From positions 1,923,437 to 1,987,436 of the forward strand of contig OZ240221.1 in the NCBI GenBank assembly GCA_965197675.1: DNA of 64,000 nt. The letters are read 5' to 3'. The stretch is from Dehalococcoidia bacterium. Its GTDB lineage: Bacteria > Chloroflexota > Dehalococcoidia > Plut-88900. The translations under genes and the position numbers were made by a program. The notes beneath the pieces were generated by a model. The model did not search any database. It was given only the letters and a program-made list of their open reading frames with translations, and was not told the DNA's origin. Shown here in pieces: positions 7,543 through 56,680 of the stretch (the first letter of the stretch is position 1; each line of letters begins with the position of its first letter).

Positions 7543-7555
7543 ACTCTCAGACCTC

Positions 7556-35416: not shown

Positions 35417-36226
35417 ATGACTAAGTTACAAGAGGCCTATCCGCTAAAGCCGGGATTACCACTGCAGGTGGATAGAGGATTCTATGGCCGTCTCGCTAAT
35501 AACACAGAGAATCGGAAGCTCGTTGATAAATTCATCGTGCCTCCCCGCTCTGGCAAAGCATGGCCGGTTCATGCGGGACAGCTCTGTCGAATCGTGGTGG
35601 TAGAAGGGCCTCAGGTGGCCGATCTTAACATCTGGAATTTGCACGATCCCCGTGAGCGGTTCTGGGCAGCCCGCACCAGGCAGTTCTATCGAGCCTACGT
35701 AACCACTTACGACCGCCTTTGGTCATGCTTGCCCTACCTCCGGCCCATGCTGACCATCACCAACGATTCCATCAACTACGGAGTGGATAAGGATGGGGCC
35801 TGGTGTCATGACCTGCTCGGAACTCGATGTGACTCCTACGTCCAGAAACTGTTGACCGGCGAGGACGTGGACTACACCTGTCACTCCAACCTAGCTAGAG
35901 CTATAGCGCCATTTAACCTCACTGAGGAGAATGTTCACGACGTCCTCAATATCTTTGAGGTGGATGGGCTAACAGAGGACAAGAGGTATGCCAGCAAACC
36001 CAGTCCCGCTAGGGAGGGCGACTTCTTTGAGTTTTTTGCCGAGATAGATCTCCTGTGTGCCATCTCCACATGCCAGTTAGGAGACATGTCCTCGACTAGT
36101 TGGAACACCACAGGTGGCGATTCTGCTCCCACCTGCCATCCCCTGGGCATCGAGGTGTACCAGCCTAGCGATGAGCTAATAGAGGGATGGGAGTCTCCTC
36201 CACCATCGAGAGCCTGCCTCAGATAG
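35417..36226 (+). CDS. DUF1989-like (urea-carboxylase-associated family) protein
   Basis: By-eye similarity only. Confidence 0.4.
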   Translation: MTKLQEAYPLKPGLPLQVDRGFYGRLANNTENRKLVDKFIVPPRSGKAWPVHAGQLCRIVVVEGPQVADLNIWNLHDPRERFWAARTRQFYRAYVTTYDRLWSCLPYLRPMLTITNDSINYGVDKDGAWCHDLLGTRCDSYVQKLLTGEDVDYTCHSNLARAIAPFNLTEENVHDVLNIFEVDGLTEDKRYASKPSPAREGDFFEFFAEIDLLCAISTCQLGDMSSTSWNTTGGDSAPTCHPLGIEVYQPSDELIEGWESPPPSRACLR

Positions 36227-36335
36227 GCAAAGGCCTTGGGCCCACCCGCCCGCCCCCGTTAGGTTTTTGTATCTGGGAGCACATCCTCCAAACTCCCTGC
36301 CAGAAGCATGCATCTCTCTGGACCCCCTCCGTGCG
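36225..36335. repeat. intergenic modular repeat element (C-B-palindrome modules)
   Basis: Shares the GGTAGGTTTTTGTAT(G/C)TGGG core and the CCACCCGCCCGCC and CCTGCCAGA...CTCTGGA modules with six other loci. Confidence 0.6.
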
Positions 36336-36462
36336 GGCTTCCGGGACAGGGTCTCGAGCTATGCAGACAATCCTGGGATACCTAGATGAGCTATATCTAA
36401 GATCTAAGAGAATCCAGGTCTATTCCCACCTCGGCCGCGATATTTGAAAGGTAGTCCCAGTC

Positions 36463-37471
36463 CTAATCTCGAATGGGTATGCCCTCCTTCAGGCGGCGCT
36501 CCTCTTCACGCTGGGCGTGTTCGCCCGGCAAGACGATTTCGTCGAAGCCTTCGGCTAGTCGAGATGACTTGATGGCCCTTATTAAATCGTCCACTCTGGC
36601 CTTGAACTGATCTATCGGAACAAGACGGTCAATATTTATTGCCATCAGAAAGACGCCTGCTTCCCAAGGATGCTCGGCTGAGGCGTGCCAGGTTATATCC
36701 TTCGATACCGCTACGCCCGAGAGCAACCCTGACAAGACCTCAACCCAAATAAGCCATCCAAACCCCCTGGGGCCCAGAGGCAATAACGCTCCTAGTATCT
36801 CGGAGTTTCTATTTGAAGGCTCCAACACCAGAGGCTTAGGATCAGTGGTCACACGACCATTTTCATCCACGACAACACCTTCTGGTACAGGTACGCCGTC
36901 ATGGGCGGCCCGAATGATGCGTCCATCGCATACTGCGCTGGTAGAACCGTCAAAGACAATGGGCCTCTCAGCTCCTGCTGGTACCGCAAATGAGATGGGA
37001 TTCATATTGAAATCTGGTCTCGGCCTCCCCAAGGAGCTACGGCCGGCGCCCCGTTACAGGTAACGAATCCTATGTAGTCATGCTTCAATCCTGCATGGAA
37101 TAGTTGCCTGCCATAGTGAAATCATTGGCGTTTCTCAACCACACACTACCAAGCACCGACTCTTGAGCCTTTTCTATGGCGACTTCCATGGCTTTAGTAG
37201 TTACCACTTGGCCAGTCCCGTGTCCCCCATCTATTACGGCATAGCTCGGCCCCTCGTCCAGTATTTTGATGGACACTCCGAACTTTAATGCATCTCTCTT
37301 GACCAGGGGGTAGACGATGGTGAACCCCGCTATTCCCTGGTTGTCCTTGCCAGTTAGATCAGCCTTGATAAGGCAATCAGTGAAGATCCTCACCTCCTCT
37401 TCGGTTGCACCGAGTTTCCTCCAAACGGTGATGTAGATCCTATACAGGTAGTCTGATGATTCGATGCGCAT
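36463..37471 (-). pseudogene. Ldh_2 family (malate/L-lactate/sulfolactate dehydrogenase-like) gene split by a frameshift
   Basis: N-terminal 128 aa (37085..37471) and C-terminal 189 aa (36463..37032) both match Ldh_2 but lie in different frames. Confidence 0.55.
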
Positions 37472-37691
37472 CTATTGTTACATCCTTTCGCGTGGGATAG
37501 CGGGCGTGGTAGAGAGAAAAATAGGTGGCGTCAATTAGACGCATTACTCGGCAACAGCTTGATCCCTCCTTTCGACAGCATTAGTTGACTACTCCTATGT
37601 GACACAAGGACTGCAGAAACCCCAGTATTCTCGATGGCGGGTGACCTTTTTTATTTATGCTTCGGTTCATAGGGAGAGAACGGTGGCAAGA

Positions 37692-38006
37692 ATGCGTTGC
37701 ACCAGTTGTGGTATTATCCTGAATCCTGAGACAATGGAATGTCCTGGCTGTGAACGCAAGCCAGATAACGATGGGGAAAGCCCCGGCCAAGGCTCTATGG
37801 GCAATCACATCGTTACAGCCATCTTTGTCGTCATCGTCGCTGCCATCGGTGCCCTCATCTACGGGACTATCTTCGGAGCCACCTACGCTGTCATCGGCGC
37901 CGGCATCGGTGCAGCTATAGTCATTTTCGTCACCATCGTCAAAGTTGAACCCAGCCTCGAGTCGCACCAATGGGTTAGAAGGTTGTTAGATACCCTGGAG
38001 AAATAG
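37692..38006 (+). CDS. small zinc-ribbon membrane protein (CxxC...CxxC plus glycine-zipper TM helix)
   Basis: The internal ATG at 37692 gives MRCTSCG...CPGC, followed by a GxxxG-rich helix. Confidence 0.4.
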   Translation: MRCTSCGIILNPETMECPGCERKPDNDGESPGQGSMGNHIVTAIFVVIVAAIGALIYGTIFGATYAVIGAGIGAAIVIFVTIVKVEPSLESHQWVRRLLDTLEK

Positions 38007-38058
38007 GACACTGGTATTGGTTGCCCCGAATCCTATATTTTGTTGATTCCGGGTACAA

Positions 38059-38148
38059 TGGCGGAGGGGGTGGGATTCGAACCCACGATCCACTTGCGCA
38101 GATGCCGGTTTTCAAGACCGGTGCCTTAAACCGCTCGGCCACCCCTCC
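38059..38148 (-). tRNA. tRNA-Ser (anticodon UGA), type II with a long variable arm, CCA encoded
   Basis: Hand fold. Acceptor GGAGGGG/CCCCTCC. Anticodon stem-loop CCGGT-CTTGAAA-ACCGG. T-loop GGTTCGAATCC. Confidence 0.85.
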
Positions 38149-38260
38149 TCACGGATATTTTATACCTGAATCTCGAATAGAGGAGTATGACGAGCCCTGA
38201 AAAATTGGGTACTTGCCTCAGAGCAGAGATATGCCATCCCACTCAAACAGGGGTGATTCC

Positions 38261-39418
38261 TTAATCCAGGTCGTATACCTTGACAGCGTTTTCGCCTAGG
38301 ATCTTGTTTTGAGCGCTATCGGAGAGGCTGCCGATGTGTTCCTTCAACTCCTCCACCGGTCCATACTCGGCATCCTCGTGTGGGAAGTCCGATGCCCAGA
38401 CGAAGTGCTCTGCTCCCAGTAGCTTCACCATGGCGGGTGTGGTTTTCTCATCTGGGTCCACGGATATATAGCACTGTCTGTCAAAGTAGAAGCTTGGAGG
38501 CTCCTTCATAGAGGAAAAACCCTTACCCACCTTATACTTACTATCCATTCTCTCGAGCCAGTGAGCTATCCAGCCTCCACCACTCTCCAGAATGACGTAC
38601 TTGAGTCTAGGAAACCTATCGAAAACTCCGGTTGTCATCATCGCCGTGAAGGCAGCCTGCACATCTAGCATCAAATAGGTGAAGGTGAAGACCATGTTCT
38701 CTCTCTGTATCGAATACTCGCCGGGCCACAGAGAGCTGGCCCAATCGGACATGGTATTGTTCACTCGAACTACGACGTGGGGAGCTATAGGCAGGTTCAT
38801 GTCTTGAGCTTCAGCCCAAAGAGGGTCATAGTCGGTGTGTGCGATGGTGCGGCCATCGAAGATGTCAGGGCGAATGAAGAAGCCCTTCGCTCCCAATTTG
38901 GCCGTTCGCTTCATCTCACTGACGGCATCTTCGACATCCAGTATGGGAATGTGGGCCACGGCAAACAATCGGTCAGAGTAGGGTTTACAAAAGTCTACCA
39001 ACCAGTTGTTGTAGGCCTGTGCAAGGGCGAGAGCCAGACCAGGATCGTCTACATTCTCTTCCCAGATGATTCCAATGGTTGGGTAAATGAGGGCGGCGTC
39101 GATTCCCTCGTCATCCAACACCTGGACTCGCTGGTGGGGGTCCATAGAACCGGGTGGAGCGCCATCCATATATTTGTAGATTCCGGGTGTGTTCAACTTC
39201 TCATGATCGCCATCGGGGTAGCCTGCGATACCACCTAAGTTGGCATTGGTTCCTGGCTCATACCCTGTCTTTCCATCAACCTCCCAGTAGTCACGGCCCT
39301 GCTCGTCAACTCTCCAACGAATGGCACGGTCCTTATATTTGCTATCCAGGTAGTTCTCCCACAGGTCCATAGGCTCCAGCACGTGACCATCAGCGTCGAT
39401 AACCCTCATTTCTGTCAT
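38261..39418 (-). CDS. amidohydrolase family 2 protein
   Basis: VIDADGHV N-terminus. Third paralog in the window. Confidence 0.7.
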   Translation of the reverse strand: MTEMRVIDADGHVLEPMDLWENYLDSKYKDRAIRWRVDEQGRDYWEVDGKTGYEPGTNANLGGIAGYPDGDHEKLNTPGIYKYMDGAPPGSMDPHQRVQVLDDEGIDAALIYPTIGIIWEENVDDPGLALALAQAYNNWLVDFCKPYSDRLFAVAHIPILDVEDAVSEMKRTAKLGAKGFFIRPDIFDGRTIAHTDYDPLWAEAQDMNLPIAPHVVVRVNNTMSDWASSLWPGEYSIQRENMVFTFTYLMLDVQAAFTAMMTTGVFDRFPRLKYVILESGGGWIAHWLERMDSKYKVGKGFSSMKEPPSFYFDRQCYISVDPDEKTTPAMVKLLGAEHFVWASDFPHEDAEYGPVEELKEHIGSLSDSAQNKILGENAVKVYDLD

Positions 39419-40234
39419 TCCCCTTCTCCTGATCGTACTATGGCTCCTAAAGTGACGTCACCATTAGCGCCTGTCCCTCAAAGTGCTTTGCCTCTTCTCT
39501 TGCCGAATGCTCCTCAATTACAGAAACCCATCGAGACTTGGCAGATGACAATCTAGCGTGGAGGCTTGTAGATGTCAACATTGTGTAGGCCTGCACAATG
39601 TTGAGCTCATGACCTGGTTTGGGGTACCAAATGTAACTTGAGTCCGCGCTCTGATCGATAGTTTGGATATCTCTGTATAGCTCTGGACGAATGGATCTAA
39701 TGGGCATACTATTCAATCCCATTTGTGGGATTCGGCTCGGTGATACAGGGAAAGCGCCGATTCACATTTGTATTCACAGTCAACACTTTGGCATCGATTT
39801 GCCCTATAGCCAGACCCAGATCGATGAGGTCGCGGCGAGAAGGCTAGCTTTCCTTGATGTCGTGGACTAGGCTCTCACCAAACCAGAAGTTAGGATAGGC
39901 GATCCTATCGATGCTATAATCTGGATGACAATCCCATACCTCTGGGCCTCTGTGGAGACAGTAGGACTTGGGAAGTCTGTACGACATCCTGGAGAGCAAA
40001 AGTACACACTGTTATGATGACCCTCGCATCTATAACTACGTGATAACCGGGTTGCCAGTAGACGGGGCGAGCCGGATCACCATGCACAACAACAATCTCC
40101 ATAACCCCCTGGTTCGACAGCACCATGATCCAGCGGGATCTGTCACCTGCCTGTCCGACAGACAGAGTAGGCAGGCCTCTAGACTCCCTCCATGCTGGCT
40201 TCTGGTATAGGGTCTTATAGAAAGTAGAAGTTAG

Positions 40235-41086
40235 ATGGCAAAGCCAAAATGGGACTCGGGACTTCAAGAGATAGCGAAGGGAGTTTTCGCCTACGTTCAC
40301 GACGAGGCCAGATGGGACAAGTGCAATTCCGGCTTCATCGTGGGCGAAGATGGGGTGATGGTCATAGACGCCATGATGGTTGAGAGCATGGTGCGACCCT
40401 ATTTGGAAGTTATTCGCAAGGTCACCAGCAAACCGGTTCGATACGTGGTGAACACACATCACCACGTAGACCATAGCTTTGGCAACCAGTTCTACGATAA
40501 CCCTGAGATAATATCCCACAGCCGCTGTCGCGAAGCCATGTTGAACGTAGACATCGCTGCATACCAGAAGCAGCGACCCGAATATTCGGAGGATTGGCCT
40601 AAAATCCAACTTACTCCCGCCACTGTCACTTATGAGGGCAAGATGGTCGTTCACTTGGGTGATCGTATAGTCGAGCTACTGCATCCGGGAGCGGCGCATA
40701 CCTACGGAGACACATTGATATTTCTGCCCGAGGAAAGGGTGCTGTTTACGGGTGACGTTGCCTTCCATTACTTGATTCCTATGGCCAGGGACGGTCACGT
40801 GAGCAACTGGATACGGGTAGCGCGGCGACTCATCAATCACATGGACGCCAAGACTATAATGCCGGGTCATGGGCCGGTAGGTGACAAGACCGCTATCATC
40901 AAAACCCTAAATTACCTACAGCTGTTGAGGCGGACCTGCAGGTCATACTTCCGGCAAGGTGCGGGTGAAGAGGATGCCGAAGTAGCGATGCACGTCGATG
41001 AATACGAAGACTGGGCTGAGCCCTGGCGGGTCAAGATAAATGTGGAGCGTATGTACAAAGAGCTTCGGGGGGAGCTGCCTAGGTAG
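40235..41086 (+). CDS. MBL-fold metallo-hydrolase
   Basis: HxHxDH motif (NTHHHVDHSFG). Confidence 0.7.
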   Translation: MAKPKWDSGLQEIAKGVFAYVHDEARWDKCNSGFIVGEDGVMVIDAMMVESMVRPYLEVIRKVTSKPVRYVVNTHHHVDHSFGNQFYDNPEIISHSRCREAMLNVDIAAYQKQRPEYSEDWPKIQLTPATVTYEGKMVVHLGDRIVELLHPGAAHTYGDTLIFLPEERVLFTGDVAFHYLIPMARDGHVSNWIRVARRLINHMDAKTIMPGHGPVGDKTAIIKTLNYLQLLRRTCRSYFRQGAGEEDAEVAMHVDEYEDWAEPWRVKINVERMYKELRGELPR

Positions 41087-41227
41087 TCTGTGATTGGTCA
41101 TTAGTAAAATCTCTTCTCAGGCAGGTCTACCCATCGCTGAAATCAGGAGCTTAAGATACAAGACTACTTCGCCGCATGGAACGACGACGGTCTGGCGTGA
41201 AGGCAGGAAAGTAGGTCGCCATTGAGC

Positions 41228-41378
41228 CTGTGTCAGAAAGGCGAACGTGTTGACCCACGCGCCCTGGCAGGTTTTTGTATGTGGGGAGCACATCCCCTAC
41301 TTGGCGGTAGACAGGCCCAGATCCCCCTGCCAGAGGGATGCAGGGCCCTGGATTCCCGTGCTTGACACGGGAATGACG
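41228..41378. repeat. intergenic modular repeat element including the hairpin ATTCCCGTG-CTTGA-CACGGGAAT (41352..41374)
   Basis: Same C/B/palindrome/hairpin modules as the other loci. Sits just 3' of the serS stop. Confidence 0.65.
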
Positions 41379-41398
41379 GGTGGAGTCACCACTAGGCC

Positions 41399-42661
41399 CT
41401 AGTCTACGACGTCGAATTTGGTGTAGGGACGCAGGACCTCCGGCACGATGACAGTGCCATCGCTTTGCTGGTAGTTCTCCAGAATGGATATCATTACCCT
41501 GGGCAGGGCAAGGCCAGAGCCATTTAGGGTGTGCACGAATTGGGGGGAAGCGTCCTTCTCAGTTCGATAGCGAATGTTGGAGCGGCGCGCCTGGAAATCT
41601 GTGCAATCGCTGCAAGAGCTGACCTCAAGCCACTCTTGTAGGCCTGGCGCCCACATCTCTAAGTCGTAGGACTTGGCCGAGGGAAAGCCCAGATCTCCCG
41701 CGCAAAGCTGCAGCACCCTATAGGGAATGTTCAGTCCCTGGATTACAGCCTCGGCGTCGGCCACCATTCTAGATAACTCATGGTCAGAGGACTCAGGCTC
41801 TACCAGCTTGTACATCTCCACTTTGTCGAACTGGTGCCCTCGTTTGATTCCTCTCGTGTCCCGGCCTGCCGACATCTTCTCTCTTCTGAAGCAGGGTGTG
41901 TATGCGACGTAGTTTAGGGGCAGGGTATGGGGGGGCAATATCTCGTCACGGTGAAGGTTGGTCAGAGGAACCTCCGCGGTAGGGATCAACCACAGGTCGT
42001 CCTCCTCATCGTGGTAGAGGTTGTCGCCGAACTTGGGCAGGTTGCCGCTTCCTATCATGGTCTCCTGCTTGACCAGGAAGGGAAGATAGGTTTCCTGGTA
42101 GCCGTGCTTCTGGACGTGAAGGTCCATCATCCAATTGATGAGGGCTCGCTGGAGGCGGGCACCCTGTCCTTTGAGGACGTAGAAGCGAGAGCCGGAAATC
42201 TTGACTCCCCTATCGAAGTCGAGGATGCCCAACCTCTCACCGAGCTCCCAATGAGGGAGGTGATTGAAGTCCAAGGAAGTAGGCTCGTGCCAGCTTTTGA
42301 CTATCAGGTTGCCGGATTCGTCTGCCCCGTCTGGCACGTCATCTCTGGGGATGTTGGGCAGGGTGAGAAGAGCGGCCTCCAGGTCGGCCTCTATGATCTT
42401 GAGGTCATCTTCCAGGGCCTTGATCTCGTCGCCCACCTGACGCATTTCGGCGATGACCTCTGGGGGCTTATCCTTCATCTTGGAGAGCTGTTTGCTGACT
42501 TGATTCCGACGAGCCCGCAGGGCCTCAGACTCGGACAAGATGCTGCGACGACGCTGGTCCAGGTGGAGAATCTGGTCCAGGGGGGCATCGTCTTCGCCGC
42601 GTCGGGACAGGGCCTCTCGCACGACCTGGGTATTATCTCGGATAAGCTGCAGGGATAGCAT
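41399..42661 (-). CDS. serS: serine--tRNA ligase
   Basis: N-terminal coiled-coil arm plus a class II core. Confidence 0.9.
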   Translation of the reverse strand: MLSLQLIRDNTQVVREALSRRGEDDAPLDQILHLDQRRRSILSESEALRARRNQVSKQLSKMKDKPPEVIAEMRQVGDEIKALEDDLKIIEADLEAALLTLPNIPRDDVPDGADESGNLIVKSWHEPTSLDFNHLPHWELGERLGILDFDRGVKISGSRFYVLKGQGARLQRALINWMMDLHVQKHGYQETYLPFLVKQETMIGSGNLPKFGDNLYHDEEDDLWLIPTAEVPLTNLHRDEILPPHTLPLNYVAYTPCFRREKMSAGRDTRGIKRGHQFDKVEMYKLVEPESSDHELSRMVADAEAVIQGLNIPYRVLQLCAGDLGFPSAKSYDLEMWAPGLQEWLEVSSCSDCTDFQARRSNIRYRTEKDASPQFVHTLNGSGLALPRVMISILENYQQSDGTVIVPEVLRPYTKFDVVD

Positions 42662-42684
42662 GGTTATTTAGGCAGATGTGTCAT

Positions 42685-43065
42685 CCTTCGACAAGCTCAG
42701 GATGAGCGTGCTGTGACCCTCTCTTGGATTCTCGCTCACTTCCTTCCCTTCGACTATGCTCAGGGTAAACTACAAGCACAGGATGAACGTGGGAACTTGA
42801 TTGTCTTTTCTGTTTAGCTTTGAAACTTGATTGAATTTTCTGGTTCACGTTCAAACTTGATTGAGTTATAAAAAAAGTTTTAATTTCGGGGTTTCCCAGG
42901 CACGGAGATCCAGCTTTTTTTGATTGAGTTTTTCACGGCCACTTTTCATATTCTTCACCCTTCGACAAGCTCAGGATGAGCGTGCTGTGACCCTCCCCTG
43001 GATTCTTGCTTACTTCCTTCCCTTCGACTACGCTCAGGGTAAACTACAAGCACAGGATGAGCGTT
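42685..43065. repeat. two 106-bp direct repeats (42685..42790 and 42958..43065, about 92% identical) flanking an AT-rich segment with four iterated AACTTGATTGA-like motifs
   Basis: Read directly. The motifs occur at about 42795, 42825, 42854 and 42920. Confidence 0.7.
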
Positions 43066-43164
43066 GAGATTGACAAGCCCAGGACGACAGGTTGGATGGT
43101 CATACACAGTATATGCCAGACTAGAGTAACAAGGTAAGAGGTTAGCGGCACTTTGTCTGTCTGT

Positions 43165-44082
43165 TCAGGCAGGCAGACATGACAATGTGGGAGTTAGCTC
43201 TTTGATCCTCTTTTCGGCGAGGCGCACGTAGCTTTCGTTGATTTCGTAGCCTATGTAGTTGCGGTTGGTCTTCAGGGCGGTGAGGCAGGTGGTGCCGCTG
43301 CCCAGGAAGGGGTCTAGCACCACCTCTCCTTCGAAGGTATACAGCTGTATCAATCGATAAGGCAGGTCCACGGGGAAGGGGGCGGGGTGTCCCACCCTCC
43401 GGGCTGCCTCTGCAGGAAAGCTCCAGACGCTCTTGGTGAACTCCAGAAACTCATCCCTGGTTATGGTGCTGTTTCTGGGTTCAGGGGGCTTTCTTTGGAA
43501 ACTCTGCTTGCAAAATATGAGAATGTACTCGTGGGTGTCCCTGAGGGTGGGGTTGGACGCAGACTGCCAGCTGCCCCACGCAGTGGATGCACTGGAGCTG
43601 GCCCCCTTGTCCCAGATGATCTCGCCCCGCATGAGAAAACCTATTTCCAGAGCATCTTCTATGACGTGGGCATGGAGTGGAACGTAGGGCTTCCTGCCCA
43701 GATTGGCCAGGTTGACACAGGCCCTGCCTCCTGGCACCAGAACTCTGTAGACCTCAGCCAGCACGGTGGACAAGAGGGTCCTGTAGTCCGGCAGGGAGAG
43801 GTCCTGGTCATATTCCTTGCCTACGTTGTAGGGCGGTGAGGTAACCATCAGGTGGACGCTGTTATCAGGCAACTCATGCATCTCTTGGCTGCTCTTGCAC
43901 AAAATTCTGTCTAAAAGAGAGGGGTCAATGGGATTCTCCATGTGCTCGACGCGCCTGCCTGAACAGACGGGTTTCTGGCCCGTCAAGCCTTCGTAGAGCT
44001 TGCTTCTGTAGAACTGTGAGGAGTCGTGGCCTATTCTGCCAGGCGCTCCGAAGGCGCTGGTCTTGGTGGATTTTCTCTTCAT
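43165..44082 (-). CDS. DNA methyltransferase, N4/N6 class (PF01555-like; SPPY catalytic motif, C-terminal FxGxG AdoMet motif); apparently orphan
   Basis: MVTSPPYN and DPFLGSGTT motifs. The start overlaps the lysS stop as ATGA. Confidence 0.75.
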   Translation of the reverse strand: MKRKSTKTSAFGAPGRIGHDSSQFYRSKLYEGLTGQKPVCSGRRVEHMENPIDPSLLDRILCKSSQEMHELPDNSVHLMVTSPPYNVGKEYDQDLSLPDYRTLLSTVLAEVYRVLVPGGRACVNLANLGRKPYVPLHAHVIEDALEIGFLMRGEIIWDKGASSSASTAWGSWQSASNPTLRDTHEYILIFCKQSFQRKPPEPRNSTITRDEFLEFTKSVWSFPAEAARRVGHPAPFPVDLPYRLIQLYTFEGEVVLDPFLGSGTTCLTALKTNRNYIGYEINESYVRLAEKRIKELTPTLSCLPA

Positions 44083-45578: not shown

Positions 45579-45618
45579 GGGAATTATTTCTAAGTAGACC
45601 CGCGATGAGTAGGTTTGG

Positions 45619-46089: not shown

Positions 46090-46224
46090 GATGACATAGG
46101 ATGGAAATAAAGAAAATAGCCCCTTACATAAGGAGCTTAAAATCCTGCCTAATTATAAAGAGTTACTATAGTAAAGTAAAGGTGGTTGTGCTAGATTCTT
46201 CGCCTCACCTCTTCCCTGGATTTC

Positions 46225-46735
46225 CGCTCATGTCCTTCGACAAGCTCAGGATGAGCGGGGGTCTCCTCTCTCTTGGATTCCCGTGTCAAGACACGGGAAT
46301 GATGGGTGGGGTAGGGAGAAGGGACTGCCCCCTCTTCCTGATGGGCTTGTCTCAGAAAGGCGAACGTCTTTTATCCCACCCTCCCGCCCTGGTAGGTTGT
46401 TAGAAGTCGAGGGGGCACCCCTCGAGCACCCCGCCAGAGGGAACCATCCCTCTGGACCCTCTCCGCTGGGGATTCTTGGACAAGCCTCTCTTGGATTCCC
46501 GTGCTTGGCACGGGAATGACGGGAAAGAAGGTTGGGGTACCCTTCCCTTCGACTATGCTCAGGGTAAACTTTAAGCTAAGGGTGAGTGGAGACACCTCAA
46601 CCTGTCCCGGTAGGTTTTTGTATGTGGGGGCACATCTCCCAACCCCCCCTGCCAGAGGGAGGTATGTCCCTGCCTGCGCCTCGTTCGGCGCGCTTGTCTG
46701 TCCGCAGGCAGGCCTCTGGACACCCTCTGAATGAG
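46225..46735. repeat. cluster of modular intergenic repeats (two hairpin copies at 46277..46300 and 46495..46517) in the greA/rsmD divergent region
   Basis: Modules FDKLRMSG-coding, C, B and palindromes present. Confidence 0.65.
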
Positions 46736-46835
46736 ATCGGACGTGATGCAATATAATCTGCTGCGGTTGCCACTGGAGTAAAACCTGCTTAGAATGGTTG
46801 TGCCGAGTTGATGACCACGCTGGCAGAAGTGAATC

Positions 46836-47396: not shown

Positions 47397-47878
47397 CTAT
47401 AGCCCTCTATCCGGGGAGCTTCGACCCCGTAACCTATGGACACTTGGATATAGCCAAGAGGGCCGCGACTCTGTTTGAGGGGTTGGCGATTGGGGTGTAC
47501 GCTACTCCTGACAAACGCTTGCTTTTCAACACTGAGGAGCGTGTAGGCTTGCTGGTAGAAGCCACCAAGGACATCTCCAACATCAAAGTATTGACCTACA
47601 CAGGGCTGACTGTGGACTGCGCGCGTCAACTGGGTGCACAGGTGATGATACGGGGGCTGAGGATGAACTCTGACTTCGAGCGAGAGTTTGAAATGGCCCT
47701 GATGAACAAGAAGCTGGGTCCGGACATCGAGCTAGTTACGCTAATGAGCAGTCTGGAACACCAGTTTCTGAGCGCGTCTCTACTCAAGGAGGTGGTGAAG
47801 CTGGGGGGTGATCCGAACGCGTTCGTTCCACCTCACGTAGGGGTAGCCCTCACAGATAAGCTGCTGGGCTCCCAGTAG
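47393..47878 (+). CDS. coaD: phosphopantetheine adenylyltransferase
   Basis: YPGSFDPVTYGHLDI N-terminus. Confidence 0.85.
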   Translation: MTIALYPGSFDPVTYGHLDIAKRAATLFEGLAIGVYATPDKRLLFNTEERVGLLVEATKDISNIKVLTYTGLTVDCARQLGAQVMIRGLRMNSDFEREFEMALMNKKLGPDIELVTLMSSLEHQFLSASLLKEVVKLGGDPNAFVPPHVGVALTDKLLGSQ

Positions 47879-47904
47879 CTTTCAGCTTCAATCAGTCCTC
47901 CTCT

Positions 47905-48500
47905 TAGATTCCCCTCCCAGATAGGCAAATAAACCTCGTTGGCGCCCGAGTGAAGGGGCTGGTATCGCTATTGGAAGGGCTTGGCGGTCACCAGGGAGGT
48001 ATGACTATTGGAGCAAGGGGCGGTCTTTCCCACCCGCCCGCCCCGGAAAGTGGCTGTGGGGGCACATTCCCCAGTCAAGCTGAGGACAGGCCCTCTGCCA
48101 GAGGTTGGTTTCCTCTGGACTCCCTCTGCTGGGGATTCTTGGACAAGCCTCTCTTGGATTCCCGTGTCAAGCACGGGAATGACGTGAAAGAAGGGGGCAC
48201 GGAATGATGGGAAAGAGGGGAGCAGGGGAATGACGACATAGGAGGTGAGGGTGCCCTTCCCTTCGACTACGCTTAGGGTAAACTTTAAGCTAAGGGTGAG
48301 CGGAGACACCTCAACCCTGCCCGGTAGGTTTTTGTATGTGGGGCACATTCCTTCGAGAGACTCAGGACAGGCCCCCTGGCAGAGGGGCATCACCCCTTTG
48401 CCAGCTCCTATTGGCAACAAGGCGTCCTTCGTGGGGGGAGGGATGTGTCTACATGAGTGGCAGGGGTGAAGCCTCCAAGCCACAGGCTGCCCCTTCACCA
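47905..48500. repeat. cluster of modular intergenic repeats (hairpin at 48158..48180) between coaD and polA
   Basis: Same modules. Generates the spurious ORF 47968..48501. Confidence 0.65.
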
Positions 48501-48631
48501 ACCCAGGTGGAGAATCCAGTCCCTAGATGCTAATTTTGCTGCGAGTGCGGTGATGTTATAATCACTTGGGAGGATTTTCTCTTCAAACTCTGTTCCTGAT
48601 ATTTCACATGCCTGCCTCGGAAAAAGCTCCG

Positions 48632-51343: not shown

Positions 51344-51346
51344 CCT

Positions 51347-52156
51347 GTGCCTGAACTGCCGGACGTCGAGGTCATCAGGTTGAATATCCAGCCCGACATA
51401 GTCGGGCGAATTTTTACCCACGTCGCCCTGAATTGGCCCGGATCTGTACGAAGTCCCTCCCCGGGTGAGTTTCAAGAGGCATTGCTCGGCTCCAAAGTCG
51501 CTGATCTCAGGCGAAGAGCCAAGTACTTTCTGTTCGAATTGAATACGGGAGAAAGCCTGATTGTTCATCTTGGCATGACCGGCTCTTTGAGATTGACGCC
51601 CGCACGGGAGGACATGCACCGATTCACCCAGACTGTTTTCGAGCTGGACGACGGGAGACATCTCCGGTTCGTAGACCCGAGAAAGCTGGGGAGGATGTGG
51701 TTGGTGGAGGATGTGAACACAGTAATCGGAGGCTTGGGGCCAGAACCATTGGAACCGCCCTTCACCCCTCTGGTTCTTTCGGGGATTCTGAAGAACAGGA
51801 CAGCATCGATCAAGGCTTTGCTGTGCGATCAGGGTTTAATCGCAGGCATTGGCAACATCTACGCCGACGAGATCCTCTTCGATGCCAAGGTTTATCCTCT
51901 GAAGACGGGCAACCAGCTATCTGAAGGTGAGATTGGGGCCTTGCATTCGTCTATCCAGAAGATACTCAGTGAAGCCATCGACAATCTGAAGGACATGCTG
52001 CCTGAAGACGCTACACCCACGGAAGAGGCGGGCATGGAGGTGATCCGCGTTCCCAGAAACAATGGTCAAGCTTGCTCTGTATGCTCCTCCCCTATTCAGA
52101 GGACAGTGGTCAGAGGGAGGGGGACCTATTTCTGCTCCAATTGTCAGCCTCTCTGA
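51347..52156 (+). CDS. mutM: formamidopyrimidine-DNA glycosylase
   Basis: MPELPDVE N-terminus and a C-terminal zinc finger (CSVC...CSNC). Confidence 0.85.
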   Translation: MPELPDVEVIRLNIQPDIVGRIFTHVALNWPGSVRSPSPGEFQEALLGSKVADLRRRAKYFLFELNTGESLIVHLGMTGSLRLTPAREDMHRFTQTVFELDDGRHLRFVDPRKLGRMWLVEDVNTVIGGLGPEPLEPPFTPLVLSGILKNRTASIKALLCDQGLIAGIGNIYADEILFDAKVYPLKTGNQLSEGEIGALHSSIQKILSEAIDNLKDMLPEDATPTEEAGMEVIRVPRNNGQACSVCSSPIQRTVVRGRGTYFCSNCQPL

Positions 52157-52159
52157 TCC

Positions 52160-52680
52160 CTGGATTCTCCACCCAAAAACGTAAGAAGACCTCGTTGGCG
52201 CCTGCCTGCTACAGGCAGGGCTGCTGTAAAGCGGGCTATGATGGTTCTTGCACAAGAGAAGCTATCATCAATGAGGTGAACATGTTATCAAGCAAGGACT
52301 GCTGCCATTCCAGTACCTTGAGTCTGTCTCAGAAAGGCAAACACCTTAGTCCCACCCGTCCGCCGCTGTAGGTTTTTGTATGTGGGGGCACCATCCCCCA
52401 GTCGAGCTGAGGACAGGCCCCCAGGCCCTCTGCTGGGGATTCTTGGGCAAGCCTCTCATGGATTCCCGTGTCAAGCACGGGAATGACGGTATAGAGGGCT
52501 GGGGTACCCTTCGACAGGCTAAGGGTGAGCGGAGACACCTCAACCCTGCCCTGTAGGTTTTTGTATGTGGGGGCACATCCCCCAGTCGAGCTGAGGACAG
52601 GCCCCCAGGCCCTCTGCCAGAGGGAGGTGTGTCTGCTGCTGGCAGGCCTCTGGACTCCCTCGGTGAAGGATTCCTGGACA
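52160..52680. repeat. cluster of modular intergenic repeats (hairpin at 52462..52484; two B-module copies) in the mutM / VOC-gene convergent region
   Basis: Same modules as the other loci. Confidence 0.65.
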
Positions 52681-52709
52681 GGGTAGTTTTGGTGGAAGAT
52701 TTGAGAATA

Positions 52710-53141
52710 CTAGGCCCCGGGGAGCGGGCCTAGGCCCTTCTGAAGAAGCTCGATGAAGGCTCCGTGGGTGTCCCTGGGGTGTACCCAAACGGCCTCGGTA
52801 TTGGGAGAGGGCTCTTCGTCTTCAGGGATACCTGTGATGCGGCCACCTTTGGCACGCACCTCTCTTACCGCCTCCCGCAGATCGTCCACCTCGAAAGTGA
52901 CCAGATAAATACCTTCACCTCTTGACTTCAAGAACTTGGCCACAGCGCTGTCTGGGTCTATCGGCTCTATGAACTCGATGAGAGCCTCGCGCCCGTTGCC
53001 CAAGTAAGTGCTTCGGAACCCGAATCTGGTGAAGTCGTTGGGTGGTTGCATCACCTGTAGGCCGAATAGCCTGGTATAGGTCTCGGTGGCCTCTTCCAGG
53101 CTGTTTACGGCTATGCAGGCAAAGCTCAGCTTATTGATCAT
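52710..53141 (-). CDS. VOC-family protein, methylmalonyl-CoA epimerase/glyoxalase-like
   Basis: Size and a paired beta-alpha-beta-beta-beta module pattern. Confidence 0.5.
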   Translation of the reverse strand: MINKLSFACIAVNSLEEATETYTRLFGLQVMQPPNDFTRFGFRSTYLGNGREALIEFIEPIDPDSAVAKFLKSRGEGIYLVTFEVDDLREAVREVRAKGGRITGIPEDEEPSPNTEAVWVHPRDTHGAFIELLQKGLGPLPGA

Positions 53142-53301
53142 GAGAACACCTCCTAGTCAATTGGTATGCGGTCTATCATCCGACTGTTGATATGGATAGT
53201 GTAGAATAGAGGCAATTTTCAAACGTTGGTTAGTTGTTTCGCCTTCTCTGGTGGTCATGTTGGTATAGCATACATTAGCCAACGAAAGAAAGGGGGAGAA
53301 T

Positions 53302-54534
53302 ATGGGCCAGGCACTAAAGGACGTGAGGGTTGTAGACTTGACTCAGTACGAGGCCGGCACCTCATTTACCCAGGCGCTGGCCTGGTTGGGAGCCGACGTC
53401 ATCAAGGTGGAGGCGCCGGGTCGGGGTGACCCCGGTCGAGTGCTTAGTACGGACAAGCCAGGCCTGGATAGCCCCTACTTCCTCATCCTCAACTCCAACA
53501 AACGGAGCATAACCCTGGACCTAAAGAGGGAGAAGGGAAAAGAGGTCTTCCTGGAGATGGTGAAACGGGCGGACGTGGTAGCGGAGAACCAGGGCCCCGG
53601 CACCCTGGAACGCCTGGGACTGGGCTACGAGGTTCTGGAAAAGACCAACCCTAGAATAATCCTGGGTAGGGTAAAGGGATTTGGGACTTATGGGCCATAC
53701 AGCTCCTACAAATGCTTCGATATGATCGCCCAGGCTGCGGGAGGCTCTTACAGCACTACCGGCTTTGCCGATGGGCCTCCCATGGCCCCTGGCCCAACTT
53801 TTGGAGACATAGGCACTGGGTATCACGCCGCTCTGGGTGTTACGGCGGCTTTGTATCAAAGGGAGCGGACGGGCAAGGGCCAGGTGGTGGAGGTTGCCAT
53901 GCAGGATGCGGTGGTGAACTTCAGCAGAGTGGCGATGATGGGGTACTACCACAACCCGGACGAGGTGCTCAGGGTAAAGAAGGGAAATAGAAACGGGGTT
54001 AACTACTCTACTGAGTGGGACCCACCTCCCAACGGTCTCTACCAGTGCAAGCCTGGAGGTGCGGACGACTATGCCTACGTCTTTGCCCTAGACTCGCCTT
54101 CAGATATGTGGCCCAGGCTTCTCAAGGTCATAGGCAGAGAGGATCTGATAGGTGACGAGCGGTACGAGAATGGAGATGCTAGACGAGAGCACGTGAATGA
54201 AGTAAACGAGATTATCGAAGAGTGGACGATTAAGTGCACAAAACACGACGTGATGAAGATCTTAGGTGAGGCCGGCCTGGTGGTAGGGGCGTGTCTCAAC
54301 GCTAAAGACATCCATTCAGATCCCCATTTGCTGGAAAGGGGAATGATCGTCACGTACAAGCATCCGGATAGAGGCACCTTTACTGCGCCCGGCTCTCCTA
54401 TCAAGCTGTCCGACTCTCCCACTGAGGTTACGGCCCCACCCCTCTTGGGCCAGCACACCCGGGAGGTGCTCAAGGAGGTCCTGGAATACTCGGACGAGCA
54501 GGTCGACACTCTCGAGAGAGAGGATATAGTCTAA
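53302..54534 (+). CDS. CoA-transferase family III (CaiB/BaiF) protein
   Basis: VRVVDLTQYEAGTSFTQALAWLGADVIKVE N-terminus. Confidence 0.75.
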   Translation: MGQALKDVRVVDLTQYEAGTSFTQALAWLGADVIKVEAPGRGDPGRVLSTDKPGLDSPYFLILNSNKRSITLDLKREKGKEVFLEMVKRADVVAENQGPGTLERLGLGYEVLEKTNPRIILGRVKGFGTYGPYSSYKCFDMIAQAAGGSYSTTGFADGPPMAPGPTFGDIGTGYHAALGVTAALYQRERTGKGQVVEVAMQDAVVNFSRVAMMGYYHNPDEVLRVKKGNRNGVNYSTEWDPPPNGLYQCKPGGADDYAYVFALDSPSDMWPRLLKVIGREDLIGDERYENGDARREHVNEVNEIIEEWTIKCTKHDVMKILGEAGLVVGACLNAKDIHSDPHLLERGMIVTYKHPDRGTFTAPGSPIKLSDSPTEVTAPPLLGQHTREVLKEVLEYSDEQVDTLEREDIV

Positions 54535-54580
54535 GTGCAACCGAAGAGTGAGTCGTGGAGGGACGTGAGGCTCTCTGTTT

Positions 54581-55789
54581 ATGGATCTCGTCGACAAGGT
54601 TCTTAGACGAAAGGAGCGGTCTGCCTCTGATTGGCATCGGCATGGTCAGAGACTGATGCAGGAGCGACGCTGGCGGGATGCCATCAAGAGCTTCAGAAAG
54701 GCCCTACGTTCTGAACCCACGTTGCTTCAAGCTTACATAGATAGAGGCACAGCTTATTACAATACAGGCCAGTACGAGATCGCTATCACCGACCTAGACG
54801 AGGCTGTTTCTCTGTCTTCAAACAGCGTCGATGCTTATGATATGCGCGGCACTATCCACACCGCTCTCGGAGGGTACGAGCAGGCCATACAGGACTTCGA
54901 TCAGGCTATTGGGCTGAATCCCCAGGTCGCTCATCTCTACAGCAATCGAGGTCTGGCCCATTTCAAGCTGGATCGACCTGAACAGGCCATGCAAGACTAC
55001 GACTCTGCCATTCAACTGGACCCGCAGCTGACTCAAGCCTATGCTCGTCGTGCGTATGCTCATATAAGCCGGGAAGCGTATGAGCAGGCCATCGAGGACT
55101 GTAACGAGGCCCTTTGCTTAGACCCCGGCTCCGCTCAAGCCTACTATGTGCGAGGTGTTGCCCACAGCAGGCTTCGCGAGCATCAGAAGGCAATCGAAGA
55201 CTTGGACCAAGCTGTTCTGCTGGACCCTGAAAATTCTCGGTCCTACTATCAACGGGGATGTGTGTACGAGGAACGCGGCGAATATCAACAGGCCTCGGAT
55301 GACTACAGTGAGGCCATTCGCCTGGAGCCGGGACTGGCCGAGGCTTATTTCGGAAGGGGTGTGGTCTATGCTGAACAGAGCTGGCACGAGGAAGCCATGG
55401 GGGAGTATGACCAAGCCTCGCGTCTTAACCTGACCGACGCCATCTTATACTACAGAATAGGAAACTCCTATCTGAGCTTGGGGCGCTATGCGCAGGCCAT
55501 CAAAGAGTTCGATGAGGCGATTCGACTCGATCCTCAGCTAGGAGACGCCCGCAACAACAGGGGTGTTGCTCACAATAACCTGGGAGAGAGCAAGGAGGCA
55601 ATTGACGATTTTACTGCCGCAATCCGCCTGGATCCCGAGAACGGGCAACCCTACGCCAATCGAGCCGTCGCATATATTGCTATGCTCATGGATCCGGAGG
55701 CACAAGCGGACGTTGACGAGGCCCTTCGGAGGGGTTTTTCCAAGGATCGGCTTGACAAGGCAATAGAAGCGGCAAAAAAGCAGCGTTAG
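54581..55789 (+). CDS. tetratricopeptide-repeat protein (about 10 TPR units)
   Basis: Tandem 34-aa AY..RG...LG.Y..A..DF..A..L.P units. Confidence 0.7.
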   Translation: MDLVDKVLRRKERSASDWHRHGQRLMQERRWRDAIKSFRKALRSEPTLLQAYIDRGTAYYNTGQYEIAITDLDEAVSLSSNSVDAYDMRGTIHTALGGYEQAIQDFDQAIGLNPQVAHLYSNRGLAHFKLDRPEQAMQDYDSAIQLDPQLTQAYARRAYAHISREAYEQAIEDCNEALCLDPGSAQAYYVRGVAHSRLREHQKAIEDLDQAVLLDPENSRSYYQRGCVYEERGEYQQASDDYSEAIRLEPGLAEAYFGRGVVYAEQSWHEEAMGEYDQASRLNLTDAILYYRIGNSYLSLGRYAQAIKEFDEAIRLDPQLGDARNNRGVAHNNLGESKEAIDDFTAAIRLDPENGQPYANRAVAYIAMLMDPEAQADVDEALRRGFSKDRLDKAIEAAKKQR

Positions 55790-55804
55790 ACACTCAGCAA
55801 AGGC

Positions 55805-56362
55805 ATGATGCTCTCGAAGGTACCTGTTATAAGAAAGATTACTATTCCTTTTGTCATATTAGCGGTTGCGGTCTTAGCCCTATCCGCATGTGGAGCTGAG
55901 TTGTCTGCAGCTCAAGAGCTTCACAACGAGGGAGCTAAACTTCATTTGGATGGACATCTGGAAGAGGCGATAGCTAAATACGATCAGGCCCTTCTTCTCG
56001 ACCCCAGCCTGGTGCTTACCCTCATGGAGAGGGGAGATGCTTACTTCGAGTTGGGGGAATTCGACTCAGCTGTCGAGGACTACAGCGTTGCTATAAGCCT
56101 CGACACCGACAATCGCGAAGCGTACAACAAACGCGGTTTCACCTATTACACGCTGGGCCAATATGATGAAGCCATTGCTGATTTCAACCAGAGTGTGATA
56201 CTGGACCGCCGATTCGCGGCTGGATATGCCAATCGTGCTCTCGCTCATACGCAGGTGGGCATGGATGAACAGGTGAAAGACGACATCGACCTGGCCGTCT
56301 TCTACGGATTCGATAGGGACGTCCTCGAAGCGCAAATAGAAGAGATAAAGGCGCAGCGCTAA
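55805..56362 (+). CDS. TPR-repeat lipoprotein
   Basis: Signal peptide with a Cys (LALSACG), then 4 TPR units. Confidence 0.65.
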   Translation: MMLSKVPVIRKITIPFVILAVAVLALSACGAELSAAQELHNEGAKLHLDGHLEEAIAKYDQALLLDPSLVLTLMERGDAYFELGEFDSAVEDYSVAISLDTDNREAYNKRGFTYYTLGQYDEAIADFNQSVILDRRFAAGYANRALAHTQVGMDEQVKDDIDLAVFYGFDRDVLEAQIEEIKAQR

Positions 56363-56374
56363 GATCTAATTGGG

Positions 56375-56680
56375 CCCCCGGCCCCTGGGAGGGTTTTGTA
56401 TCTGGGGGGCAGTTCCCCCCAACCCCCTGCCAGAGGGATGTTTCCCTCTGGACCCTCTGCAGGGGCATCCTCCTCCCCGCCTAGGTAAGTGGTCTCCAAA
56501 CCCCCAGGCAAGGAGGCTCTGCGTCAGAAAGGCGAAGGCTTTGGTCCCACCCTCCCGCCCAGGTAAGTGGTTCTTGGGAGCACATCTCCCCCGTGCAACA
56601 CGTCTTCCCTGGATTCCCGTGTCAAGCACGGGAATGACGGGTGGAGCGGCTTTCGATAAGCTGAGGGTGGGGGATTGGGG
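56375..56680. repeat. modular intergenic repeat element (hairpin at 56613..56635)
   Basis: Same modules as the other loci. Confidence 0.65.

Follow-up and report, generated by a model that had tools for sequence, protein, structure and literature searches.

Among bacterial sequences of the repetitive extragenic palindromic (REP) type, the CGTC-tagged families share a common grammar: an unpaired CGTC head, sometimes replaced by TGTC or CCTC, a stem of 8-9 bp that starts A-T, T-A, a loop of 4-5 nt and a CCA tail (PMC3733652). The families CGTC-3 and CGTC-4 have a 9-bp stem and a 5-nt loop (PMC3733652; Di Nocera, De Gregorio & Rocco 2013, BMC Genomics 14:522). Their loops fall into a few major sequence types, and the repeats mostly occur as head-to-head dimers, an arrangement that is frequent but not defining (PMC3733652). 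CGTC repeats were reported from five phyla, in Chloroflexi only GTAG repeats (GTAG-23) were found, and no CGTC family was associated with the gene of a REP-associated tyrosine transposase (RAYT) or another transposase (PMC3733652). In Neisseria, the 28-nt sequence NTS (CGTCATTCCCGCGMAVGCGGGAATCYRG) has the dRS3 repeat ATTCCC-N8-GGGAAT as its core, and its general form is the Ssn-related motif (SRM) (PMC11893778; Nat Commun 2025;16:2388). SsnA, a GIY-YIG protein of 94 aa with a single domain (cd10448), acts on NTS only as single-stranded DNA (ssDNA) and in one orientation only, in binding as well as in cleavage; binding depends critically on the C that follows the palindrome, cleavage on the three bases that precede it, and ssn genes are often flanked by their own SRMs, an arrangement like that of an insertion sequence (IS) (PMC11893778). 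Here we describe intergenic repeats, built around a hairpin that very likely belongs to this class, in 64 kb of a Dehalococcoidia bacterium (Chloroflexota; GCA_965197675.1, contig OZ240221.1, positions 1,923,437 to 1,987,436 of the forward strand). This whole stretch is called the window, and coordinates refer to it unless a locus is named.

The hairpin and its identity

An initial annotation, made from the sequence and its open reading frames (ORFs), had reported a perfect 9-bp-stem hairpin in six copies. The pattern ATTCCCGTG-N(1-30)-CACGGGAAT indeed gave exactly six matches in the window, at 41352, 46277, 46495, 48158, 52462 and 56613; it was absent from 100 dinucleotide-preserving shuffles, and no match is expected by chance. 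All six copies have nine perfect stem pairs. Their loops on the plus strand are TCAAG (three copies), CTTGA, CTTGG and TCAAGA (one copy each), i.e. 5 nt in five copies and 6 nt in one. The conserved unit is longer than first described: on the plus strand TGG precedes and GACG follows the stem-loop-stem, GACG being GATG in the 46277 copy, and this polarity of the flanks is identical in all six. Read on the minus strand, the unit is CGTC-ATTCCCGTG-CTTGA-CACGGGAAT-CCA, with the CGTC head and a 5-nt loop in five of the six copies, CATC as head in the remaining one and the CCA tail throughout. The 33-nt oligonucleotide sequence of the hairpin is CCGTCATTCCCGTGCTTGACACGGGAATCCAGG; folded as ssDNA, the hairpin has a free energy of -9.6 kcal/mol (z -4.7).

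The single copies, all on the minus strand, differ little. The copy at 41349-41378 reads CGTC-ATTCCCGTG-TCAAG-CACGGGAAT-CCA and lies between a convergent metallo-beta-lactamase-fold gene and serS. The variant copy at 46274-46304 carries the CATC head and the 6-nt loop; the orthologous loop in the sister strain L103 (ENA ERZ25072076; 99.5 % identity to the window along 17.8 kb) has 5 nt. The copy at 46492-46521 has a CGTC head, a CCAAG loop on the minus strand and a CCA tail, and the copy at 48155-48184 presents the minus-strand unit with the CTTGA loop. The copies at 52459-52488 and 56610-56639 match the published degenerate SRM motif exactly. The closest pair is 218 bp apart in direct orientation. 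Next to the fourth copy, at 48197-48235 on the minus strand, two tandem half-sites consist of the head and one arm only (GCACGGAATGATG and GCAGGGGAATGACG); half-sites of like kind adjoin hairpins in other genomes, too.

With a CGTC head and a 5-nt loop in five of six copies, a 9-bp AT-starting stem and the CCA tail, the window hairpins agree with CGTC-3. With NTS they share CGTCATTCCCG...CGGGAATCCAG, which comprises head, outer stem and tail. The bases critical for SsnA are present: the C after the palindrome in six of six copies, the GTC before it in five of six, and these bases are invariant over ten copies from three genomes. The SRM string HGTCWYN(0-2)YYVSBRHN(0-5)WNVSBRGN(0-2)RNCYNB was matched exactly by two of the six copies against 0.72 matches expected per window, and also by hairpin copies in L103, in L104 (from a strain 99 % identical to the window) and in the contigs L111 and L112 described below. 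A supplementary table lists VIAGLDPAIH as pseudo-peptide of the Rhodopseudomonas palustris CGTC-3 repeat (PMC3733652). The pseudo-peptide VIPVLDTGIQ of the window appears to parallel it, and the simplest back-translation of the R. palustris peptide would give the same CTTGA loop.

The hairpin is not private to this genome. In a scan of one genome per species with the pattern GGATTCCCGTG-N(4-7)-CACGGGAATGA, the exact 27-mer occurred in at least 102 stretches, from many Dehalococcoidia metagenome-assembled genomes (MAGs) to Chlorobium, Prosthecochloris, Treponema, Oscillospiraceae, Rhizobium, Agrobacterium, Brucella, Methyloligellaceae and others. Among the matches listed, AT-starting perfect hairpins carried the heads CGTC (93), TGTC (36) and CCTC (9), seven control tetranucleotides occurred 0-2 times each, and 83 of 93 had the CCA tail; the search pattern itself accounts for part of these counts, but not for the 30 hairpins that have another stem. 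The commonest loop in the other genomes was CTTGA, and the stem ATTCCCGTG is identical in the genomes of Rhizobium and Agrobacterium. When a plasmid collection was searched for the hairpin, nothing closer than near matches turned up; these lie on Sinorhizobium megaplasmids, without an annotated feature. Module B of the surrounding repeat (see below) had no match in a JGI metagenome scan, and a literature search on the pseudo-peptides and on the TTCGACAAGCTCAGG module yielded nothing useful.

The hairpin is embedded in longer mosaics. The initial annotation had described a set of modules shared among intergenic regions; a repeat finder recovered all of them (families D1-D16), and from 36.2 to 56.7 kb eight intergenic regions contain modules of this set. 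The large blocks at 46, 48 and 52 kb are colinear and 70-90 % identical, with the order left end, A, B, F, C, D, hairpin, half-sites, E, B, F, C, right end. Module A is TCAGAAAGGCGAA...CCCACCC, module B is AGGTTTTTGTATGTGGGGGCACAT, and module C is the palindrome CCAGAGGGA...TCCCTCTGG. The units at 36, 41 and 56 kb are shortened versions of the large composite, and sizes range from about 170 bp to about 630 bp for the colinear composites. When ten copies from three genomes were aligned, identity was 95 % over stem and flanks, and 100 % among the five window copies included, against 43-57 % in the 40 columns on either side of the hairpin; module E (CCCTTCCCTTCGACTAYGCTCAGGGTAAACTTTAAGCTMAGGGTGAGYGGAGACACCTCAACC) reached 86 %. 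In view of this difference the hairpin is under a constraint that is not felt by the rest of the element. Altogether, the hairpin is very likely a member of the known CGTC-REP/SRM class, set in mosaics like the neisserial intergenic mosaic elements (NIMEs) or bacterial interspersed mosaic elements (BIMEs). On the best-supported account it would act as a recognition element at the DNA level, and the mosaics would have spread into intergenic DNA and varied afterwards by recombination.

Empty sites, strain variation and dispersal

Comparison with related genomes separated filled from empty sites. In L106 and L107, the PolA of which is 86 % identical, the gene order is kept and the intergenic regions are short. 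The length between the aligned flanks in L106/L107 and in the window, respectively, is 1 and 629 bp for coaD/polA, 14 and 556 bp for fpg/glyoxalase, 21 and 570 bp for greA/rsmD, and 63 and 338 bp for TPR/tetR. Intergenic regions are likewise short in the more distant L108 and L109 (71-72 % identical), and none of the modules but a TTCGACA(A/G)GCTCAGG core was found in the L106-L109 loci. With empty orthologous sites in the relatives and the modules missing, the parsimonious reading is therefore that the arrays were gained in the window lineage. The filled sites correspond to a block of about 570 bp (46191-46762) between the divergent greA and rsmD, not present in the 86 % relative; a block of about 629 bp (47904-48532) between coaD and polA with a precise breakpoint against the relative and the ends AGATTCCCCTCC ... 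GGTGGAGAATCC; a block of about 556 bp (52160-52715) at the point where fpg and the glyoxalase gene converge, which is colinear with those at 46 and 48 kb; and a shorter block (56371-56708) between a TPR gene and a tetR-family gene, which contains a unit of about 100 bp. Promoter-like hexamers lie just beyond both ends of the 46-kb block and right after the 56-kb block; these insertions therefore spared core promoters.

Between strains of 99-99.5 % identity, nearly all insertions and deletions of at least 3 bp fall inside the arrays, including the loss of about 270 bp and the gain of about 200 bp of units. The unit of about 100 bp, GGTAAGTGGTTCTTGGGGGCACAAGCC...CCTCCTCCCCGCCTA, forms five tandem copies in L104 (17860-18340), called by the gene caller as an ORF of 174 aa, and about 1.5 copies in the window (56466-56600). 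A 26-bp half-site duplication at 56627 is polymorphic between strains. The orthologous hairpins at 41352-41374 of the window and at L104:1606 differ by a loop flip (CTTGA vs TCAAG). At L104:18403, which corresponds to window 56610-56639, the left flank is GTC instead of TGG, so that GTC/GAC, the sequence of the head, adjoins the stem on either side and the palindrome extends to 15 bp (CCCGTCATTCCCGTG...CACGGGAATGACGGG). Loop flip and palindrome correction look like template-switch footprints, and the strain differences as a whole are what template switching at hairpins, together with unequal recombination, classically produces. L104 also carries a 1138-bp IS110-family element (6503-7640; DEDD_Tnp_IS110 and Transposase_20) in the loop of a second hairpin type, CCGCTCATgtCC-TTCGACAAGCTCA-GGATGAGCGG, at window 46249/46250 with AG on either side.

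A confinement of the copies to this region, named in the initial annotation as an argument against its own reading, was not observed. One spurious repeat ORF, used as a query, had three protein hits, among them one on L111 and one on L112. L112 is 956 kb long and belongs to the ENA assembly that also contains L103; on it, two more arrays with the same modules and slightly degraded hairpins are located at 8791-9048 and 9992-10256; on L111, an 11.8-kb contig of a different organism, there are three composite copies, including CGTCATTCTCGTGCTTGACACGGGAATCCAG. The family is therefore not restricted to the window region. Extrapolation from two arrays per 20 kb of L112 and six hairpins per 64 kb gives, as a guess, a few hundred copies per genome.

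A candidate reader of the hairpin

Single-domain GIY-YIG genes (PF01541) coding for 93-104 aa were found in Dehalococcoidia on L086, where the gene is cut by the locus end, on L110, part of a 2.87-Mb genome, and on L111. All three are flanked on both sides by inverted hairpin arrays that follow the logic of head, AT-stem and CCA in the form TGTC-ATTCTGAGG...GAAGAAT-CCA. In L110 (9800-11100) the 93-aa gene has inverted hairpin pairs (TGGGATTCTTCGCTTCACTCAGAATGACA / CTGTCATTCTGAGGAGCCCTGCGACGAAGAATCC) on its sides, followed by 5-6 tandem units of them of about 150 bp. In L111 (5700-6900) the 5' end of the 104-aa gene together with flanking hairpins is tandemly duplicated about fourfold, which results in pseudo-ORFs of 43-57 aa. 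L111 carries a GIY-YIG gene plus the same composite family with CGTCATTCTCGTGCTTGACACGGGAATCCAG, and ATTC(C/T)CGTG hairpins lie 1.3-5.5 kb from the GIY-YIG gene on L086 and L111. An IS related to the IS110-family element of L104, with the same ends (CAACTGTCTTGAAAGTCAAGA...AAGATACA), adjoins the gene on L111 (7753-8862). As a separate observation, comEA and comEC are located 2-5 kb upstream of the L110 gene.

From these data a mechanism may be proposed in which the hairpin acts as DNA. Its strand, once single-stranded in replication, repair or DNA uptake, would fold, and the folded hairpin would be recognised by a sequence- and structure-specific protein. The likeliest partner would be a nuclease of the Ssn family, small and consisting of a single GIY-YIG domain, the gene of which would lie at another place in the genome; it would bind the stem and the following C and nick beside the GTC head. 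Such a recognition would keep the hairpin invariant and let the surrounding modules drift. Breaks or recombination at the hairpins, combined with unequal recombination or slippage between modules, would bring arrays to new intergenic sites and allow them to grow and to shrink, and the arrays may double as landing pads for IS110-family elements.

Several observations weigh against this proposal. A GIY-YIG gene was not found in the 64-kb window by motif, tblastn and profile search of all six-frame ORFs of at least 40 aa, and the GIY-YIG proteins of the relatives gave only a weak match in the PDB, the UPF0213 protein BH0048 (E 0.03). The hairpins that flank the genes of the relatives are of a different type, outside the SRM string, and may be what those genes serve, rather than ATTCCCGTG; the reader of the ATTCCCGTG hairpin, if there is any, may be another GIY-YIG paralogue than those flanked by ATTCTGAGG hairpins. 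The strict SRM string is not matched by four of the six window copies, which depart from it only at the orientation of the loop or the last base, and all six are single and co-oriented, without the head-to-head doublets usual for CGTC repeats. Ssn was shown to cut DNA, not to mobilise repeats, and the mode of spread is not established even for Neisseria. The strain assemblies have a coverage of 2-9x, so that single-base and small indel differences between them may be errors.

An Ssn-type GIY-YIG ssDNA nuclease as likely reader of the hairpin is hence a tentative assignment. We infer that the genome encodes such a protein, that it would cut the hairpin and that the protein or its breaks would drive the spread. 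The overall explanation by invasive non-coding mosaics with a CGTC-3-type core and an Ssn-type reader is the best available and somewhat probable. It is doubtful whether one may go further and regard the composites of 170-630 bp as non-autonomous derivatives of an IS-like SRM-ssn-SRM cassette, with a GIY-YIG Ssn as the mobilising enzyme in Dehalococcoidia. Hints in this direction are the resemblance of module E to the leader upstream of the L111 GIY-YIG gene, the tandem duplication of ssn 5' fragments with hairpins in L111 and the half-sites of head plus one arm beside hairpins. If true, the cassette would imply a transposition-like mechanism by GIY-YIG nicking of ssDNA hairpins, and it would explain how transposase-less CGTC REPs spread across many phyla with a near-identical 27-mer.

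Alternative explanations

The initial annotation saw in the repeats an element resembling a REP or a MITE (miniature inverted-repeat transposable element) rather than a gene-specific regulator, and suggested a RAYT (IS200/IS605 Y1 HUH) as cognate enzyme. The REP-like part of this view held: the hairpins are REP-like, they occur in all gene contexts, a relative has empty sites, the arrays vary between strains and recur on another contig, and Rfam has no match to them. Mobilisation as REP or REPIN by a RAYT could draw on the general resemblance to REPs, the hairpin being short, GC-rich, intergenic, multi-copy and headed by an unpaired tetranucleotide, and on a GTAG within module B (GGTAGGTTTTTGTATGTGGGGGCACAT). 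The head of the hairpin, however, is CGTC and not GTAG, the GTAG of module B lies 14 nt from a weak hairpin (z -1.5), and REPIN doublets in head-to-head orientation are missing. Furthermore, no Pfam match to a transposase, Y1_Tnp or RAYT was obtained among the large ORFs of 1-36, 36-57.4 and 62.7-63.8 kb or among the called genes of L103 that cover 57.4-61.4 kb. As CGTC REPs are reported to lack an association with RAYTs (PMC3733652) and the partner demonstrated by experiment for this type of hairpin is a GIY-YIG ssDNA nuclease, the RAYT was the wrong candidate, and this explanation is highly unlikely. A classical MITE in the strict sense was not demonstrated either. In this case the blocks of 550-630 bp would be non-autonomous elements that arose by deletion from a DDE-type IS and are mobilised in trans via terminal inverted repeats (TIRs), with the hairpins as passengers. 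The three large blocks are colinear copies with sharp insertion breakpoints against L106, and a homologous left end (D19) is common to the blocks at 48 and 52 kb, which also have imperfect inverted ends of about 12 nt, GGATTCTCCACC / GGTGGAGAATCC. These ends are short and restricted to the two blocks, not being evident on the 46-, 41-, 36- and 56-kb units, and target-site duplications (TSDs) at the filled/empty junctions were ambiguous against flanks of 80 % identity. A matching IS was not seen; the IS110 elements of L104 and L111 have unrelated ends, and block copies that are 70-90 % identical around a hairpin that is 100 % identical do not behave as the vehicle of a passenger. We therefore consider classical MITEs unlikely.

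Two further explanations were considered. The repeats could be maintained for a function at the RNA level, as 3'-untranslated hairpins for termination or for protection of mRNA from 3' exonucleases, or as small RNAs. Six of the seven regions are downstream of at least one gene, E. coli REPs are known for such roles (see also PMC12306157), and two copies of module B are weak terminator-like sites on the sense strand. Small-RNA sequencing of Thalassospira provided reads of ATTCCCGCGTGCGCGGGAATGA, a dRS3/CGTC-1-type hairpin reported as 'bacterial miRNA' (PMC6413936); such hairpins can thus be transcribed and accumulate as small RNAs. The conserved hairpin, however, is followed by GACGG... and not by a U-tract, terminator-like sites are not in excess (16 vs 15.7 in shuffles), the polarity of the hairpin relative to adjacent genes differs between the window and L112, and one array of 570 bp lies between divergent promoters. 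A global structure was not apparent in a 391-nt block folded on both strands (z -0.7 and -1.3), and no Rfam match lies in the repeats; the conserved asymmetric head and tail would fit an ssDNA nuclease and are not obviously needed by a plain RNA stem. A role at the RNA level as the reason for their maintenance is thus quite unlikely. Also rejected were a known structured RNA family, which the initial annotation had named as contrary to its reading (at gathering score Rfam yielded only two tRNAs, and at E <= 1 nothing in the repeats), and terminators or promoters, the predicted counts of which equal those in shuffles. A passive satellite, finally, would be spread by slippage, template switching and homologous or illegitimate recombination without a dedicated enzyme, and its hairpin would be kept uniform by gene conversion. 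Changes in unit number, half-site duplications, the loop flip and the palindrome correction are classic products of slippage and template switching, and no transposase is known for CGTC REPs. Left unexplained are the entry into at least five distinct intergenic sites of a 20-kb region after divergence from the 86 % relative, the identity of the 27-mer across phyla, and a conversion that would act uniformly on 30 nt but spare the neighbouring 40 nt, which are about 50 % identical. We regard a purely passive origin as quite improbable.

Further features of the repeats and gene context

Self-comparison of the window confined the family to the segments 36180-36354, 40166-40215, 41222-41386, 42681-42793, 42955-43064, 46191-46734, 48012-48386, 52291-52684 and 56375-56669. 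The segment at 41222-41386 is a short composite of modules A, B and C with a hairpin; that at 36180-36354 has the same modules without a hairpin and is located between convergent DUF1989 and Ldh_2 genes. A lone fragment of modules C and D (40166-40215; families D5 and D15) had been overlooked in the initial annotation. The direct repeats of 110 bp (42681-42793 and 42955-43064) are 94 % identical to each other; the first copy comprises the second-type hairpin core TTCGACAAGCTCAGG and module E, and its first ~30 nt are common to L106/L107. Module E was located at 46541-46600, with further copies at 42728-42786, 43002-43063 and 48255-48318 and a shortened one at 52507-52547. Besides the CGTC hairpin, two other hairpin types of comparable stability are present: the second type at 46224-46258 (-9.0 kcal/mol as DNA, z -3.1), which harbours the IS110 insertion in L104, and the third type, the palindrome of module C, at 56430-56451 (CCAGAGGGA-TGTT-TCCCTCTGG; -9.9 kcal/mol, z -4.75), with more copies at 46434-46455 and 48098-48118. 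Recurring pseudo-peptides in spurious ORFs were found as annotated before, SPLTLSLKF and VIPVLDTGIQERLVQESPAEG among them, and FDKLRMSG was traced to the second hairpin type.

The Pfam map placed the repeats in all possible gene orientations, as had been claimed: three convergent (36.2, 41.2 and 52.2 kb), three co-directional (42.7, 47.9 and 56.4 kb) and one divergent (46.2 kb). On the left, the forward DUF1989 gene faces the reverse Ldh_2 gene across the 36.2-kb repeat, and the forward metallo-beta-lactamase-fold gene faces the reverse serS across the 41.2-kb repeat. In the middle, the reverse-strand genes greA, lysS, N6/N4 DNA methylase and serS follow each other with the 42.7-kb direct repeats in front of serS, and greA diverges from the forward rsmD and coaD at the repeat of 46.2-46.7 kb. 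On the right, the forward coaD is separated from polA and fpg by the repeat of 47.9-48.5 kb, fpg converges with the reverse glyoxalase gene at 52.2-52.7 kb, and the forward genes for a CoA-transferase and two TPR proteins precede the repeat of 56.4-56.7 kb and tetR. The remaining window genes code for metabolic enzymes.

The distribution in the window is one-sided. Nearly every gap among the housekeeping genes on the right is filled; the left 36 kb holds metabolic genes, mostly on the minus strand, and is free of the family. Self-comparison detected no member in 1-36 kb or 57-64 kb, despite about eight non-coding gaps of 350-870 bp in 1-36 kb. A replication origin as the cause was rejected: there is no cluster of DnaA boxes and no other origin signal that would account for the boundary, and the GC skew merely tracks the coding strand.

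Some neighbouring features were recorded on their own account. The Ldh_2 (malate/L-lactate dehydrogenase) gene adjoining the 36.2-kb repeat (36463-37471, minus strand) is broken up into two ORFs, which match the profile at positions 6-124 and 153-325, possibly by a frameshift or as a pseudogene. The AT-rich spacer between the 110-bp direct repeats (42795-42950), upstream of serS, contains AACTTGATTGA twice (42824 and 42854) and a third motif CTTGATTG; the 86 % relative has kept TTGATTGA motifs at the corresponding site, and the spacer may be the promoter or operator of serS. The N6/N4 DNA methyltransferase gene (43165-44082, minus strand) has no visible restriction partner; its position within the string greA-lysS-(mtase)-serS is kept in all of L106-L109. 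A near-perfect palindrome with 21-nt arms, TATTAATCGCGTACCTCAAAG / CTTCGAGGTACGCGATTAATA, lies at 430-479, just past the 3' end of a minus-strand gene for a solute-binding protein, and is unrelated to the repeat family.

Comparison with known systems

CGTC REPs, SRMs and NIME-like mosaics are known mainly from Proteobacteria. The window extends them to the Chloroflexota (Dehalococcoidia), for which previously only GTAG REPs were on record. The filled and empty sites together with the strain differences represent a natural experiment on the spread of transposase-less CGTC repeats and on a possible role of Ssn in it. In practical terms, the repeats account for several spurious ORFs in MAGs (VIPVLDTGIQ, FDKLRMSG), and they mark intergenic regions that are prone to misassembly and structural variation.

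The CGTC-3 REPs of Agrobacterium tumefaciens, Rhodopseudomonas palustris, Bradyrhizobium and Kosmotoga resemble the window repeats in the head, the 9-bp AT stem, the 5-nt loop CTTGA/TCAAG and the CCA tail, and furthermore in the intergenic multi-copy distribution, the lack of a nearby transposase gene and the pseudo-peptides VIxxLDxxIQ/H. In contrast to these, the window copies are single, co-oriented and part of long multi-module mosaics, which are called rare for CGTC families (PMC3733652), and the host phylum differs. The dRS3/NTS repeats and NIMEs of Neisseria share the ATTCCC...GGGAAT core, the CGTC head and a CCAG tail, as well as the organisation in mosaic intergenic arrays that are hot spots of strain variation. 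Neisseria dRS3 is the target of a specific phage recombinase (PMC11893778); here an IS110-family element has inserted within a neighbouring array hairpin in one strain. The stem of the window hairpin has 9 bp and its loop 5 nt, compared to 8 and 4 in Neisseria. A window array contains one or two hairpins, whereas every NIME module is flanked by them, and the arrays neighbour housekeeping genes instead of genes for surface proteins. For Neisseria, ssnA and a link to transformation are known, whereas for the window repeats an Ssn is a candidate partner only.

The REP-BIME-REPIN elements of E. coli and Pseudomonas are likewise short palindromes with an asymmetric tetranucleotide, assembled to mosaic intergenic elements that vary between strains, and they serve as targets of IS110- and IS3-family elements. 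They have a GTAG head, a Y1 HUH transposase and alternating orientation, whereas the window hairpins carry CGTC and all point the same way. Bacterial MITEs such as Correia/NEMIS, Nezha and the Rickettsia RPEs are similar in their size of 150-630 bp, in being non-coding and intergenic and in giving rise to spurious ORFs; RPE-4 and RPE-6 are themselves CGTC repeats (PMC3733652). The window elements differ from MITEs by a modular make-up that varies from copy to copy, and by having no convincing signature of TIRs plus TSDs. The hairpin family, the mosaic habit and the class of the cognate enzyme are thus already published; new are the host phylum, the set of modules, the comparisons of filled with empty sites and between strains, and the IS110 insertion in a neighbouring array hairpin.

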